From Gemmatimonadota bacterium (GTDB taxonomy: Bacteria > Gemmatimonadota > Gemmatimonadetes > Longimicrobiales > Gaopeijiaceae): DNA of 64,000 nt. A program made the position numbers and the translations under genes. Positions 37,525 to 42,442 of this stretch are shown piece after piece. The notes beneath the pieces were generated by a model that saw nothing but the letters and a program-made list of their open reading frames with translations, was not told where the DNA came from and ran no database searches. The stretch covers positions 928,001 through 992,000 of the forward strand of contig JAXHMG010000003.1 of the NCBI GenBank assembly GCA_034521595.1, read 5' to 3'. How positions within the stretch are numbered: position 1 is the stretch's first letter; every line of letters starts with the position of its first letter.

Positions 37525-38589
37525 TCACTGTTGATGCTTCTCCGGTGTCGACCGGACGAGGCGAACCTGCGGCCAAGGAAGATTCGAGCCGAACAACCGT
37601 GTTCCGGAAGCCGCATGGAGGAGGCGAGGCATGTCTTGGTTTCGTTCAATGATCGTCCCGGACTCGCGGTCCAGCACCCAAGTCGTAAGGTCTCCCTCGT
37701 CGATCTCGCGGTTCTCGAAGTCGAGCACGGCGTGTTGGACCACGAGCAGATTGTCATCGAAAGGGGACGTCGCGGCCAAGAAGTGCTGACTCTCCGTCTC
37801 CGGGTCCGGCACGATCGCCAACCCACCCCTGTCCGTGACCTGAAACCCGACTTCCCGGTAGTCGTCCAACTCGGTCGTCCACCGCTCTCTCCCGTCCACA
37901 GTGAAGGCGGTGACCCGGGGAGTGCTGCGGTGCACCTCGATGACCTGAGCGTTTTCGGCGTCGCAGACGAGTGCGGCATCGGAGCGGCTCTGTAGCGCCG
38001 ATTCGACGAGTCCAGGGGAGGCCCTGAGGTCCAGCTCCGGGAGGTCTCCGAACGACTGAACGAGCTCACCCGTTTCCAGCGAAAGCTCGTGGATCGTCAT
38101 CCCTTCGTGGATGCCCTGAAGGAACACCCGGCCGTCCATCGAGCAGAAATCCGAGAATAGGCCGGGGACGCTGAACTCTTCGACGAGCGAGAGGTCGTTG
38201 GAATAGAGCGACAATCGCCGATTCCCCTGGTCGAAGACCAGTGGCCTGTCCCCCTCGAGCAGGGTCACCGCGGCGAGCACGTAGAATTCGCCCGGCCCGC
38301 GTCCGGATCCCCCTGTGCCATGGAGGAGATTCCCTTGGAAGTCATAGAGTCGGAGCCGCTGCATCCGGGAATCCACCAAAGCGAAGACCTCCTCGCCCAC
38401 GTAGCCGTCCTCGACGAGCCCGATGATCTCGGTTTCATCACCCTGTCGCTCTCCGACCACGATGCTCGCATCGACCGTCGCGAGACGGTCCTCGGCGGTC
38501 TGAGCTGAAAGGGGTGCCGTGGAGAGAAGTACGGTCAGCAGCGTTGCTCGCGTCAAAAGCGTTGTCATGCGAGCCACGAGTTCGAGCAT
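37525..38589 (-). CDS. 6-bladed beta-propeller, secreted, #4
   Basis: Signal peptide ending LSA-Q, GGSGRGPGEF, C-terminal PWPQVRLVR. Confidence 0.82.
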   Translation of the reverse strand: MLELVARMTTLLTRATLLTVLLSTAPLSAQTAEDRLATVDASIVVGERQGDETEIIGLVEDGYVGEEVFALVDSRMQRLRLYDFQGNLLHGTGGSGRGPGEFYVLAAVTLLEGDRPLVFDQGNRRLSLYSNDLSLVEEFSVPGLFSDFCSMDGRVFLQGIHEGMTIHELSLETGELVQSFGDLPELDLRASPGLVESALQSRSDAALVCDAENAQVIEVHRSTPRVTAFTVDGRERWTTELDDYREVGFQVTDRGGLAIVPDPETESQHFLAATSPFDDNLLVVQHAVLDFENREIDEGDLTTWVLDRESGTIIERNQDMPRLLHAASGTRLFGSNLPWPQVRLVRSTPEKHQQ

Positions 38590-38692
38590 ATTTCCACCAC
38601 CGAGGAGAATGCTCACTAATACCAGATCCCCTTCTGTCTCATCGACGTGGATGGGTTCCGCCATCCGTCCGCAGTCTTGCTTCGGTCGTTCG

Positions 38693-39925
38693 TTAATTCT
38701 GGGCACCGACCTCCCATACCTCGACATACTCTTCGTCTAGGCGAGTGCGCCTGAGCAGAGCGATCCGATCCCGCCCCACAGCAAGTAGTTCTGTCCGCCC
38801 TGGCAGATAGCCGAACTGCTCGGTCGGCACCTTCAACTCCGCTTCTGGGATGCCGTCCGGAGAGAATATGACCCATCTTCGAAGTGCTTCTCCCGGGATA
38901 GTGGCCTCTCCGATCCATAGCGAGCCATCGGGATCAACCTGGAGGCCTTCGAAGCCCGGTAGGGTCTCGTGTATGGGCGCCTCGTTCCAAACCTTCCGGA
39001 TCCCCTCGTCGTCCAGAGGAACCATGGACGATCTCCTCTTCTCCCATGCCGATTCCTCACTTCTACCGACCTCTCCGTTTCGGCCCGGAGCTACGATGCG
39101 ACGCAGCGGGGCCATATCGGAGTCGTAGACCATGACATCCAAAGAGTCAGTGGAGCCTATAGCGACTCGCTCCCCTCCGGATGCGTGGAAGACCGTTCTT
39201 GCGAAACCGATCGGAACCAGGAAGGCGGTGCTCCTCTCCAGGCTACCGAAAGCGCGCTCCAGGCCTTTCCAGACACCGACCGTATCCGGTCCGTTGCCGT
39301 CGGCGTCCCACGTCAAAAGAGGTACCGTGTCCCTCCGTTCACCACTGCTCTGGAAATAGCGCTGCTCTCCGAGCACCGCGGCAACTCGACCGCTATCGGA
39401 AACCATGAGAGGTACGAGAGAAACCACTGGGTTCTCGTAGCCCAGCCGCACGACCTCCATGAACTCCGCGTCCGGGCTATACCTTGAAAAACGGTTATAA
39501 TCCCAAGCTGTGAAGCCGCCATCCGCGGCCGGGAGGAGCTTGGTCAACCGTTCGAACTCTCCGGGGCCCTGGCCCCGACGACCGATGCGGCGTGAGGAAG
39601 TCCCTTCGCTGCCCAAATGGATCAACTCTTGCGATCCGGTGTTGGCCAGCACCAGCGACCCGTCGGGTAGGAACAACCCGTCCAGCACCTCAAAGAGCTC
39701 AACCTCTCGCCCGTCAACATCCCGAGTACTGAACAGCCGTCTGGCTGAGAGCTCTGGCAGCGAAAACTCCTTCAGCGGTGGAATCTCCACCAGCTGCAGG
39801 CCCGCCGAATCGGAGACTGTGACCTCGGGACGGTCAAGGGTGGGAGCCCCATCACAGCCCATGGCGGTCAGCAGCATCAGCAGCGCGATCCATCCAGCGT
39901 CGGCATGTAGGTCCCGATCCGCCAT
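38693..39925 (-). CDS. 6-bladed beta-propeller lipoprotein #5
   Basis: GAGG RBS, lipobox-like AMGC, SDSAGLQLV, IGRRGQGPGEF, C-terminal LDEEYVEVWEV. Confidence 0.85.
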   Translation of the reverse strand: MADRDLHADAGWIALLMLLTAMGCDGAPTLDRPEVTVSDSAGLQLVEIPPLKEFSLPELSARRLFSTRDVDGREVELFEVLDGLFLPDGSLVLANTGSQELIHLGSEGTSSRRIGRRGQGPGEFERLTKLLPAADGGFTAWDYNRFSRYSPDAEFMEVVRLGYENPVVSLVPLMVSDSGRVAAVLGEQRYFQSSGERRDTVPLLTWDADGNGPDTVGVWKGLERAFGSLERSTAFLVPIGFARTVFHASGGERVAIGSTDSLDVMVYDSDMAPLRRIVAPGRNGEVGRSEESAWEKRRSSMVPLDDEGIRKVWNEAPIHETLPGFEGLQVDPDGSLWIGEATIPGEALRRWVIFSPDGIPEAELKVPTEQFGYLPGRTELLAVGRDRIALLRRTRLDEEYVEVWEVGAQN

Positions 39926-40147
39926 GTTGCCTCGAGTTCGTTCAATTCGCCCGCTCGTCCCGATAGGGCCAGAAGCCTGCGATGTCAGTTGATGTTCAGA
40001 TGTTTCTGACGTGGCCACAGCATACACGCTCATGTTTCCTGGGCCTTCGGAATGCACCTGTCAGGATACGATTCCCGCACGCTCGATGCCATGTTGGTCG
40101 GAGCGAACGAGGTGAGCGGAGTGAGGACCTAAATGGGCTTGTCAGAT

Positions 40148-40357
40148 TCATTCGGGGCAGTGGCCGAAAGAGCAGCAATAGAAACCCGTGCAGTCTTGGC
40201 TACCACAAAGCTCGCAGCAGCCAGTGCAACTGAAATTATAGCATTGGCAGACGCTTGCACTGGGACTGGCCACCAACGGAGATCCGGCGAGGAAATAGCC
40301 AGATGCGGCCATGAAGAGAAAAAGGCCGATCGCTCGAACGGAGGCGAACTGCTTCAT
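40148..40357 (-). CDS. Small secreted cysteine-rich peptide (69 aa; 10 Cys in residues 37-67)
   Basis: GAGGT RBS just before ATG; MKQFASVR plus a hydrophobic h-region; core CQCYNFSCTGCCELCGSQDCTGFYCCSFGHCPE; co-oriented with its neighbours. Confidence 0.8.
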   Translation of the reverse strand: MKQFASVRAIGLFLFMAASGYFLAGSPLVASPSASVCQCYNFSCTGCCELCGSQDCTGFYCCSFGHCPE

Positions 40358-40956: not shown

Positions 40957-40960
40957 GGCC

Positions 40961-42010
40961 TCAGCTCCCAGTGTCGAGGATACGGAGAAGCACGAACGGA
41001 TCGTGGGCGTCGGACGGATTCCGAAGCACCAATCCGCGTCCCTCACGGTCGCGCCCCAACAGACCGGCGTCCGCGAGGCGAATCGATGCGATGCGATGAA
41101 GTAGGTTAGGCGGCGCTGGAGCGAAGAGTGCAATTTCCCCCCCCTCAAGGGGGTTCCACCGCACCGACTCTTGGTTACCCATCTCTGCCGTCCGCACTTG
41201 AACCAAGGCGCGGCAGCCTGGGAGCGCTACAACACTTCGAACGTGGGGGCGGTCCTCGGCGAGAGTCGACTGCCGGTTGGGGACGTCAGGCCATCGTTCG
41301 GAAGGGTCCCAAACTCCCGCCGCTAGCTGACGGCCCTCGTAGTCAAAAGCCCGCAGGCTATCCGAAAAGGTCGATGCGGCGAAGATGCATCCGTCGAAGG
41401 CGTCTGCGAGGATGCGCTCGGCGCTCTCGATGGCGGGATTGGTCCGATACCACTCGGAGAGGGCCATGAAGGACGCCTCCACGGAACCCTGGAAATCGAT
41501 GACCTCGAGGAGCCCCGCTCCATCTGTGGCCGACTGATAGACAGCAAGGAGCCGATCGGGGCCCAAATATCTAATCGCGATGGGCTGGCGTGCACGGCGA
41601 TCCTGGACCAGGGAAGTGCGCGATATCTCGGATCCGAGGTTGTCTAGAAGAACAAGCTGTGAGTCGAGGAAGTCATACGCTCCAACGCCGCGCTCCATTG
41701 GGAAGACAGAAAGGACCGTGCCAAACTGTCCGGGGCCGCGTCCAGCGGAGCCGATTGTCCTCAAACGGTGACCACCGTGCGAATACACCTTGATGTTGCG
41801 GTCCGAGAAGTCGACCACCCAGAACGAACTATCTAACCGCTCAACGACCTCCCATGGTCGTGCCAGAATGGATTCTGACCCGTCCCGGAGTTCCGCGACG
41901 CGTTCGATAACAAGCTCCGGCGAGCGAGAGACTGTGGGCTTCTCGATCGCGAGTGATGCAAGGCCGAGGCAACAGAAGACTGCCGTCAGTCCGGAACGTG
42001 TTCGATACAT
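40961..42010 (-). CDS. 6-bladed beta-propeller, exported, #6
   Basis: GGAGG RBS, hydrophobic N-terminus, WVVDFSDRNIKVY, IGSAGRGPGQF. Confidence 0.8.
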   Translation of the reverse strand: MYRTRSGLTAVFCCLGLASLAIEKPTVSRSPELVIERVAELRDGSESILARPWEVVERLDSSFWVVDFSDRNIKVYSHGGHRLRTIGSAGRGPGQFGTVLSVFPMERGVGAYDFLDSQLVLLDNLGSEISRTSLVQDRRARQPIAIRYLGPDRLLAVYQSATDGAGLLEVIDFQGSVEASFMALSEWYRTNPAIESAERILADAFDGCIFAASTFSDSLRAFDYEGRQLAAGVWDPSERWPDVPNRQSTLAEDRPHVRSVVALPGCRALVQVRTAEMGNQESVRWNPLEGGEIALFAPAPPNLLHRIASIRLADAGLLGRDREGRGLVLRNPSDAHDPFVLLRILDTGS

Positions 42011-42136
42011 CGACCAACCTCCGAGAATCGCTGCCTGGGTATGGGACCCACATTGAGGGGCTGAAACCGCTCCTACAAGACGTCGTCGTAAGCCCGACGG
42101 AATGACATATTTTCGACGGTCCGCCCCATCGGAGGC

Positions 42137-42442
42137 TCAGGCGTCTTCAAGCTCCCTTTCGAGCACCTGCAGGTACTCTGAGATGCGTGCTATAGCATCG
42201 ATGGATCTCGGCGAGGAGGGGCCAAGTCCATCGGGGGGAGGTGGGAGTAGTTCCCTGATATCGGTATTCAATGCCTCTGACACTCCGACGAGCACTTCCA
42301 CGCTGAGTTTTGACCTGGACATCTGGGACACCAATGTCGTTCGAGGAACGCCCGCCTCGTCGGCTAGCCATGTCCAAGACCTACTGCCAAGCCGACGTGT
42401 AATTTGTCTCCGGATGTACTCCTGAAGATTGCGCCCACGCAT
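42137..42442 (-). CDS. XRE/Cro-like HTH transcriptional regulator
   Basis: GGAGG RBS; WLADEAGVPRTTLVSQM...VSEALNTDIRELL. Confidence 0.7.
   Translation of the reverse strand: MRGRNLQEYIRRQITRRLGSRSWTWLADEAGVPRTTLVSQMSRSKLSVEVLVGVSEALNTDIRELLPPPPDGLGPSSPRSIDAIARISEYLQVLERELEDA

Follow-up and report, generated by a model that had tools for sequence, protein, structure and literature searches.

A three-gene set of NHL propeller, thioredoxin-fold protein and exported cysteine-rich peptide in Gemmatimonadota, and its resemblance to a split NHLRC2/SOQ1 domain pair

SOQ1 of the plant thylakoid lumen and NHLRC2 of animals and some bacteria carry a TlpA/DipZ-like thioredoxin (Trx) domain fused to a six-bladed NHL propeller. 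Here we describe a locus from a Gemmatimonadota bacterium in which these two folds are encoded by adjacent genes and are followed by the gene of an exported, cysteine (Cys)-rich peptide. The locus lies within a stretch of 64,000 nucleotides (nt), hereafter the window (positions 928,001 to 992,000 of contig JAXHMG010000003.1, assembly GCA_034521595.1). Its three genes, hereafter the cassette, are as follows, with lengths in amino acids (aa).

40961-42010, minus strand: cassette propeller, 349 aa, six-bladed NHL-type, with a signal or lipoprotein-like N-terminus; GGAGG precedes the ATG
40435-40956, minus strand: X, a 173-aa exported thioredoxin-fold protein, TlpA/CcmG/ResA-like; the ATG at 40956 is the most likely start
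40148-40357, minus strand: precursor of the Cys-rich peptide, 69 codons, supported by its translation, ribosome-binding site (RBS) and homologues

According to the NHLRC2 report (PMC6107167), the Trx-like and NHL domains of that protein form a conserved cleft round the active-site motif, insulin-reductase activity is lacking, and its authors found no conserved gene neighbours in the seven bacterial genomes examined there. The cassette is like NHLRC2 and SOQ1 in that the same two folds stand side by side, outside the cytoplasm or in an equivalent compartment, and the fold neighbours of X (DipZ, DsbF, TlpA and CcmG) are those that the same report gives for the NHLRC2 Trx-like domain (PMC6107167). 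By this analogy, X and the propeller resemble a split form of the NHLRC2/SOQ1 domain pair. However, the pair is a single polypeptide in NHLRC2 and SOQ1, whereas here the ATG of X (40956) lies 4 nt past the propeller stop codon and the two genes are separate. The motif also differs, being given as CC(I/V)NC for NHLRC2 (PMC6107167) and reading [C/V]-L-[T/S]-C-E-D-L-G-R-Q here. Furthermore, the cassette lacks the C-terminal beta domain and has a dedicated Cys-rich peptide gene attached to it. A longer start for X, TTG at 41148, was disfavoured because its reading frame would run 190 nt into the propeller gene and gives a product with no signal peptide.

Another precedent is the mau gene set of methylamine dehydrogenase (MADH), in which the gene order is mauB (propeller), mauD and mauA. 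In a bioRxiv report, MauD is a dedicated Trx-like partner for MADH, whose heavy chain is MauB and whose light chain is MauA. What the two gene sets share is a propeller gene, a gene for Trx-like maturation, and a gene whose small exported product is rich in Cys and has many disulfides, predicted ones in the case of the cassette (bioRxiv 10.64898/2026.03.05.709764). However, the cassette shows no Pfam-level sequence relation to MauA or MauB, its peptide core of ~38 aa has no conserved Trp pair, and it contains neither mauE nor mauG, a MauE-like gene lying elsewhere in the genome.

The bacteroidetocins (class IIf bacteriocins of Bacteroidales) are likewise small exported peptides that contain Cys, and beside them lies a thiol oxidoreductase gene of their own, which is needed for full activity (PMC6671954). 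Bacteroidetocins have a GG leader, a C39-ABC transporter and a protein with five transmembrane segments, and no propeller, whereas the cassette peptide has a Sec-type signal. In agreement with the initial annotation, which had seen no classical cluster for peptides made by the ribosome and modified after translation (RiPPs), radical SAM, LanM, YcaO and C39 were absent in Pfam scans of the open reading frames (ORFs) at 23-58 kb of the window, and the peptides matched no NCBIfam RiPP precursor model. STa of E. coli, a small three-disulfide peptide, is exported by Sec, acquires its disulfides in the periplasm and exits through TolC. Here the likeness is a pathway analogy only, that of a Sec-signal disulfide peptide leaving a diderm cell; the two are unrelated as families (none of the 13 peptides matched a Pfam model at E ≤1), and STa has no dedicated Trx-like or propeller gene. 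Compared with these systems, the cassette has a known kind of arrangement, in which a Cys-rich peptide for export comes with its own Trx-like helper, and adds to it an unexplained NHL-propeller partner.

The trio of propeller, X and peptide genes is a conserved, previously undescribed Gemmatimonadota gene set that fits no Pfam or NCBIfam family. Full-text literature searches, whose coverage excludes most subscription journals, returned no published description of the cassette. None of the proteins retrieved with the X and peptide profiles has a Pfam domain, and where named by their source they are all 'hypothetical'. Among 60 relatives, X homologues were found in three genomes, all from another family within the same taxonomic order and all with one gene arrangement: a propeller orthologue of ~360 aa before X, and a signal-bearing six-Cys ORF of ~65-90 aa after it. 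The trio was also found in five genome-contig loci (three from Longimicrobium sp., one from Gemmatimonas sp. and one from an uncultured Gemmatimonadetes bacterium) and in six metagenome loci, one of which duplicates locus L020 and one of which ends just past X. In genome G296 the order is permuted to peptide, propeller, X.

Hidden Markov models of the propeller orthologues and of the X proteins were run on the six-frame ORFs of 20 distinct X loci, window included. A propeller-profile match adjoins X on the same strand in every one of them, with three cut by contig ends. The window propeller, which is itself one of the profile's rows, matches at E 6.5e-114, and seven distant X-like loci that are absent from those rows still have propellers that match at E 1e-11 to 1e-22. 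Propeller orthologues beside X are 21-31% identical, and in most cassettes the stop codon of one gene abuts or overlaps the start codon of the next. Small Cys-rich ORFs beside the propellers, for which a synteny search had been proposed, are present, bearing a signal, in all 19 X loci with enough flank, placed as follows.

Directly after X: 17 loci
Directly before the propeller: 1 locus (L037)
About 0.9 kb before the propeller: 1 locus (L039)
Not assessable: 1 locus (L021, which ends 81 nt after X)

The initial annotation had described a six-gene unit, but only the propeller, the Trx-like X and the peptide recur elsewhere; the upstream helix-turn-helix (HTH) gene and the two downstream window propellers have no counterpart at the other loci. 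The large gene of a VIT-VWA domain protein adjoins the cassette in two unrelated loci (L015, 6281-9346, and L043, 6716-9016).

The cassette is rare and patchy in Gemmatimonadota. None of six same-genus genomes carries it, nine of 401 genomes in a phylum-wide sample match the X profile at E ≤1e-5 (eight candidates scored per genome), and X accounts for 18 clusters in a collection of 5.8 billion. A single genome, G043, holds three diverged cassettes. Within the window genome the X profile matches one ORF and the propeller profile 20, of which seven lie at 33.6-45.3 kb of the window. The window copy has traits of its own, namely a 10-Cys core that is the richest in the family, a monothiol X, and a place in an island of low GC that holds six other propeller paralogues.

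The 69-aa peptide precursor consists of MKQFASVR, AIGLFLFMAASGYFLAG and SPLVAS, followed by a 38-residue core with 10 Cys. As had been claimed from the DNA at the outset, the Cys spacing in the translation is exactly C-x-C-x4-C-x2-CC-x2-C-x4-C-x4-CC-x4-C, a good RBS is present (GAGG, 5 nt before the ATG), and the N-terminus looks like a Sec-type signal. The signal-like region covers about residues 1-31, with V-A-S before the likely cut, and was judged from its layout of n-, h- and c-regions only. Under a rule requiring 45-120 aa, an N-terminus that resembles a signal and no fewer than 6 Cys among the last 42 residues, no other ORF of this kind occurs in the six frames of the 3.49-Mb genome. 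A looser rule (at least 4 Cys and CC near the end) returned two ORFs, the second of which resembles an off-frame artefact. Gene calling in the source assembly probably missed the peptide ORF; in the collection of 5.8 billion protein clusters it is absent, and the neighbouring X is present (P0009).

Among 1.84 billion representatives searched exhaustively, the one true homologue was P0001 (72 aa, 8 Cys), which is 62% identical to the window peptide at E 1.6e-16 and nearly identical to it in the signal region; three further matches in that search were rejected as repeat-protein artefacts. A word-indexed protein collection yielded no candidate with the single peptide as query, an Atlas search scored at most 0.84, which is a lead only, and the peptide query against the 60 relatives returned noise only (best E 0.03). 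The scan of relatives took in the unpublished genomes G056 and G037, both of which count only among those with no real match. With a profile of 13 peptides, 14 more protein clusters were recovered, and those named by their source are all 'hypothetical protein' from Longimicrobium or Gemmatimonadetes. Pfam and NCBIfam gave nothing above noise for the 13 peptides. An M-factor match (E 0.0011, in two of the 13) was dismissed as stemming from the hydrophobic CC-tail.

The conservation of the peptide gene is borne out by a family of 24 unique sequences with recurring synteny. Six Cys are invariant in all 13 aligned peptides (C39, C48, C51, C56, C61 and C62 in window numbering), and all 24 unique sequences have these six Cys, the framework of the signal-bearing peptides being C-x(4-13)-C-x2-C-x3-4-C-x4-7-CC. 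Six Cys are found in 18 of the peptides, eight in five and ten in the window copy. An extra Cys before the first invariant Cys and another after the CC occur together in six of six peptides that have either, and singly in none of the other 18, as a disulfide between the two would predict. Their spacing falls into two lineages, C-x-C with CC-x4-5-C and C-x2-C with CC-x-C, and the window peptide has a further extra pair of its own, C44 and C47. The initial annotation had left the peptide as either disulfide-stapled or metal-binding; the even Cys numbers and the paired covariation of the extra Cys favour disulfides.

By dN/dS across orthologues, a check that had been proposed at the outset, the peptide gene is under purifying selection in two orthologue pairs. 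The peptides of L019 and L020 differ by dN 0.11 and dS 0.58 overall and by 0.048 and 0.72 in the core, and those of L022 and L025 by dN 0.065 and dS 0.16, with few substitutions. Distant cassettes encode other peptide cores, with 4-6 Cys. All nine distant peptides end in C-x2-4-C-x3-8-CC (C-x2-CC-x4-CC in L038) with a short and often hydrophobic tail. The following have five Cys, in the arrangement C-x6-7-C-x3-4-C-x3-7-CC.

L039, 3219-3419: five-Cys peptide
L041, 5841-6017: five-Cys peptide
L043, 6284-6463: five-Cys peptide

Five being odd, the peptides of this subgroup should each have a Cys that is unpaired or bonded between molecules. Several Longimicrobium-type peptides (P0026, P0027, P0032 and P0034-P0036) have an n-region of the form R-R-x-[LPT], for example RRRLIG or RRLVG, with a Tat-like look; the window peptide has no twin arginine.

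X was modelled with AlphaFold2 (AF2) from a 7-sequence alignment (pLDDT 79.7, pTM 0.74), and the model matches DsbF, TlpA, ResA, CcmG and DipZ at Foldseek E 5e-5 to 1e-3 with probability 1.00. Against CcmG it gives a VIA Z of 10.7, with 120 residues aligned at an rmsd of 2.7 Å, and its Atlas look-alikes are clusters of the Thioredoxin_2/Redoxin/DsbE type. The thioredoxin fold carries the extra N-terminal strand and central insert of the TlpA/ResA/CcmG/DsbE group, and the thioredoxin-like neighbour first proposed from the DNA is therefore confirmed at the level of fold by AF2, Foldseek and VIA. At the level of sequence, X has no match in Pfam, NCBIfam or the PDB; Redoxin, AhpC-TSA and Thioredoxin_8 of Pfam gave no match at E ≤10 for 7 X members, and a PDB sequence search with the X profile returned only a designed protein (E 3.5), which was set aside.

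The window X reads V-L-S-C67-E-D-L-G-R-Q at the motif and T-P-A in the cis-Pro loop. Cys67 is invariant in 13 of 13 and again in 26 of 26 X sequences; G71, R72, R75, P131 and S158 are likewise invariant in the set of 26, and the T-P-A loop and several Arg are invariant or nearly so. Only 6 of 13 X relatives, most of the distant members among them, retain the first Cys of the motif (C-[LFM]-[TSG]-C), and CxxC is therefore probably ancestral in the family. At that position the window X has Val and its 68-70% identical homologues have Ile, leaving the second Cys only. Classical dithiol catalysis is therefore unlikely in this copy, and the statement that the peptide is folded by its Trx-like neighbour is not supported as worded. 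Given the lipoboxes in several X proteins and in most propeller orthologues, the pair is probably tethered to the membrane, facing the periplasm. DsbB, with a score above its Pfam cut-off, is encoded by the host, as is, elsewhere in the genome, a MauE-like protein; no VKOR was found in the host genome.

The cassette propeller was modelled as a six-bladed NHL-type propeller (AF2, pLDDT 80.0, pTM 0.82), with the following structural matches.

Brat, Thin and TRIM NHL domains: Foldseek E ~3e-12 (Brat NHL 2.9e-12), VIA Z 20-21.5
BF0058 (4raa), Bacteroides exported protein: VIA Z 20.9, 285 residues aligned
DUF4221 BVU_1028 (3s9j), Bacteroides exported protein: VIA Z 20.8, 306 residues aligned
PAL: VIA Z 18.1
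SOQ1: VIA Z 17.4-17.8 (7djl, Z 17.8)
NHLRC2 (6gc1): VIA Z 17.0

The best full-length matches are the six-bladed propeller lipoproteins of Bacteroidales (3s9j and 4raa, Pfam DUF5128; Z 20.8-20.9 over 285-306 residues), but the cassette propeller falls below the cut-off of PF17170 (DUF5128), at 12.8 against 22.9 bits. The description of the window propellers as PF17170-type, made in the initial annotation, thus applies only weakly to the cassette propeller and stands for two of the six window propellers scanned, the paralogues at 36190-37497 (31.8 bits) and 43922-45295 (39.8 bits). A seventh window paralogue, at 33639-34937, matches no Pfam family at E ≤0.01. A literature search on DUF5128, NVEALA, PF17170 and BF3164 gave only one unrelated paper. 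The invariant residues of the cassette propeller are mainly Gly, plus one Asp per blade; with no obvious catalytic set, a binding scaffold would fit it better than an enzyme.

Altogether, we favour the reading that propeller, X and peptide form one envelope module, in which an exported, disulfide-knotted mini-protein would be handled in the periplasm by a dedicated Trx-like/propeller pair. This reading draws on the analogies set out above, and we put its probability at about 0.55. Export signals, as judged from sequence, are found on all three cassette products. In the mechanism that we propose, the 69-aa precursor would be exported by Sec and cut after V-A-S, and the 38-residue core would be oxidised to form up to five disulfides, DsbB being available in the host. 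The window X would not be a classical dithiol oxidase; instead, Cys67 and the conserved charged face of the active site might hold, proof-read or isomerise the peptide. X might do so while docked on the membrane-tethered propeller, matching on separate chains the Trx-like/NHL cleft of NHLRC2 and SOQ1, an idea suggested by the fusion of the same two domains in those proteins. The folded mini-protein would then be released as the product of the module, probably as an exported effector with an antagonistic or signalling role, for which efflux machinery encoded elsewhere would give the way out of the periplasm.

The arrangement of some loci hints at export of the peptide by efflux pumps, although such genes are common in these genomes. 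In L014, on a Longimicrobium contig, the cassette and a propeller fragment lie between the two AcrB genes of an OEP-AcrB-...-AcrB operon (5439-16496), a homologue of which is present in the window at 48787-57965, and MacB-like genes flank the window cassette and two others (L040 and L041). A bolder form of the analogy, which we regard as rather unlikely, is that the trio is a split bacterial NHLRC2/SOQ1 machine together with its natural substrate, so that the Trx-like/propeller cleft would act on small, Cys-rich exported peptides.

Several results weigh against the envelope-module reading. NHLRC2 and SOQ1 match the cassette propeller only as generic six-bladed folds (Z 17.0-17.8, compared with Z 20-21 for other NHL domains), and neither is among the 50 matches listed for X. 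The window X lacks the nucleophilic first Cys of CxxC, so that a redox role is not assured, and the rule that all Cys are in disulfides fails in the wider group, where three of the nine peptides of the seven distant cassettes have five. No exporter gene is present in the cassette, and the peptide may stay in the periplasm. Finally, the genome has ~20 propeller paralogues but one X and one peptide, and such propellers can therefore work in the absence of these partners.

The neighbouring genes that had been counted with the trio are the following; the two propeller paralogues lie outside the conserved set.

42137-42442, minus strand: HTH regulator, CI/XRE-type, 101 aa (28 bits with Phage_CI_repr of Pfam, where the cut-off is 22; E 2.7e-6)
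38693-39925, minus strand: propeller paralogue, ~410 aa from the ATG at 39925, with a lipobox-like L-T-A-M-G-C; the ORF extends to 40057; cassette-propeller profile E 4.3e-5
37525-38589, minus strand: propeller paralogue, ~350 aa, with a signal peptide; the ORF extends to 38727; profile E 2e-12

The HTH gene is co-oriented with the cassette and lies 126 nt 5' of the propeller gene, and the paralogue at 38693-39925 starts 222 nt 3' of the peptide gene. ORFs and strands are as first described, and so is the lower GC of the region, with a G+C of 0.55-0.64 across 37.5-42.5 kb compared with 0.65-0.74 in the flanks and 0.672 in the contig. A promoter and terminator scan of 37.0-43.5 kb gave no sigma-70-like site and one terminator-like site, which is on the opposite strand; such sites are fewer than in shuffled sequence. 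Overall, the original interpretation stands in part: the gene, its conservation and the Trx fold hold, whereas the six-gene unit and the peptide 'folded by' its Trx neighbour, as worded, are not supported.

The wider surroundings show seven paralogous six-bladed propeller genes within 12 kb (33639-45295), on both strands; where aligned, five of the six others are 17-19% identical to the cassette propeller. On contig C1, at 6.7-27 kb, four more propeller genes form another cluster. The propeller island is bracketed by two pairs of a PadR regulator and a MacB_PCD/FtsX permease (28411-31475 and 45385-48401), and MacB_PCD/FtsX-like permease genes also occur near the L040 and L041 cassettes. The window operon homologous to the RND operon of L014 is an intact HlyD-OEP-AcrB-AcrB operon, ~3.5 kb downstream of the island. 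A PIN toxin and Phd/YefM antitoxin pair (25791-26493) and an HTH_3 gene facing a Fic/DOC gene (31526-32362), both of a type seen in mobile islands, lie beside the low-GC region. Two plus-strand ORFs, 42910-43578 and 48420-48710, have a common '...NRLRIAMELG[IV]...' stretch; neither has a Pfam match, and with ORFs overlapping on both strands the true gene is ambiguous.

Of the other explanations for the trio, the one that survives best, though still unlikely, is a bacteriocin-like peptide toxin used against competitors, in which X would be a folding factor, the propeller lipoprotein an immunity protein or receptor decoy, and RND or MacB-type pumps the way out. It would account for the patchy, accessory distribution (0/6 same-genus genomes, 9/401 in the phylum sample) and the low-GC island, for the presence of several diverged cassettes in one genome (three in G043), and for peptides with a conserved signal region and a variable core; bacteroidetocins also need their adjacent thiol oxidoreductase gene (PMC6671954). 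The L014 cassette lies inside an OEP-AcrB-...-AcrB operon, and efflux genes are found near the window, L040 and L041 cassettes; however, genes of the efflux and MacB-like kinds abound in these genomes and their proximity may be due to chance. Moreover, known immunity proteins are not 350-aa propellers, and in the one well-sampled pair (L019/L020) selection on the core is strongly purifying and not diversifying.

It is decidedly unlikely that the trio is an envelope signalling module, with the peptide as a ligand or redox reporter that would be read by the Trx-like protein and the propeller and passed on to a regulator. A co-oriented HTH regulator does lie directly upstream in the window, and NHL propellers are typical interaction modules (PMC6107167), but the regulator is not conserved at other loci, and the window X and propeller contain no cytoplasmic or transmembrane signalling domain.

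The mau-like gene logic (propeller, Trx-like protein, Cys-rich light chain) and the tight gene coupling in the cassettes recall a MADH-like two-subunit periplasmic protein, with the propeller as large subunit, a cross-linked peptide as small subunit and X as MauD-like maturation factor. We consider this very unlikely: neither peptide nor propeller has a Pfam match to the MADH chains, the cassette propeller has six NHL blades, the peptide cores differ widely between cassettes, and there is no invariant aromatic residue for a quinone cofactor. A candidate aromatic after the first invariant Cys was dropped, the position being Y, F, W or S.

Reduced thiols in a periplasmic metal-binding peptide, metallothionein- or chaperone-like, would be in keeping with the very high Cys density, with CxxC and CC motifs, and with fold neighbours of X that include copper-handling proteins of the Sco and TlpA types. 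This is a highly improbable account of the peptides, which have no conserved His or Met, have even Cys counts with paired extra Cys in 24 of 24 family members, and would enter an oxidising periplasm with DsbB. Finally, that the peptide ORF arose by chance in G+C-rich DNA is effectively refuted by conservation: a 97-codon antisense ORF overlaps it and the 5.8-billion-cluster collection lacks it, but it has a homologue in P0001 (E 1.6e-16), 14 more family clusters, conserved synteny, low dN/dS in relatives, a good RBS, and a GC3 of 0.63 in its own frame compared with 0.47 in the antisense frame.

With the envelope module as the preferred reading, the trio represents a conserved family of bacterial mini-proteins with two dedicated accessory proteins and no database family. 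Mini-proteins dense in disulfides have been studied at length in animals, plants and fungi, but in bacteria they are rare and little charted. These peptides might also be a new family of bacterial knotted mini-proteins with a C...C...CC framework that serve as exported effectors. With 6, 8 or 10 Cys in ~35 residues, they are possible stable scaffolds and candidate antimicrobial or signalling molecules from a little-cultured phylum. As a compact three-gene exported system, the cassette lends itself to asking how an NHL propeller works together with a thioredoxin-fold protein that has a single Cys; NHLRC2 and SOQ1 pose the same question. NHLRC2 is essential in mammals, where it is linked to FINCA disease, and its biochemical activity is unsettled. 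If the trio is indeed a split form of this machine with its natural substrate, it would define by genetics, for the first time, a class of substrates of the NHLRC2/SOQ1 family, and would offer a simple system in bacteria for testing that family.

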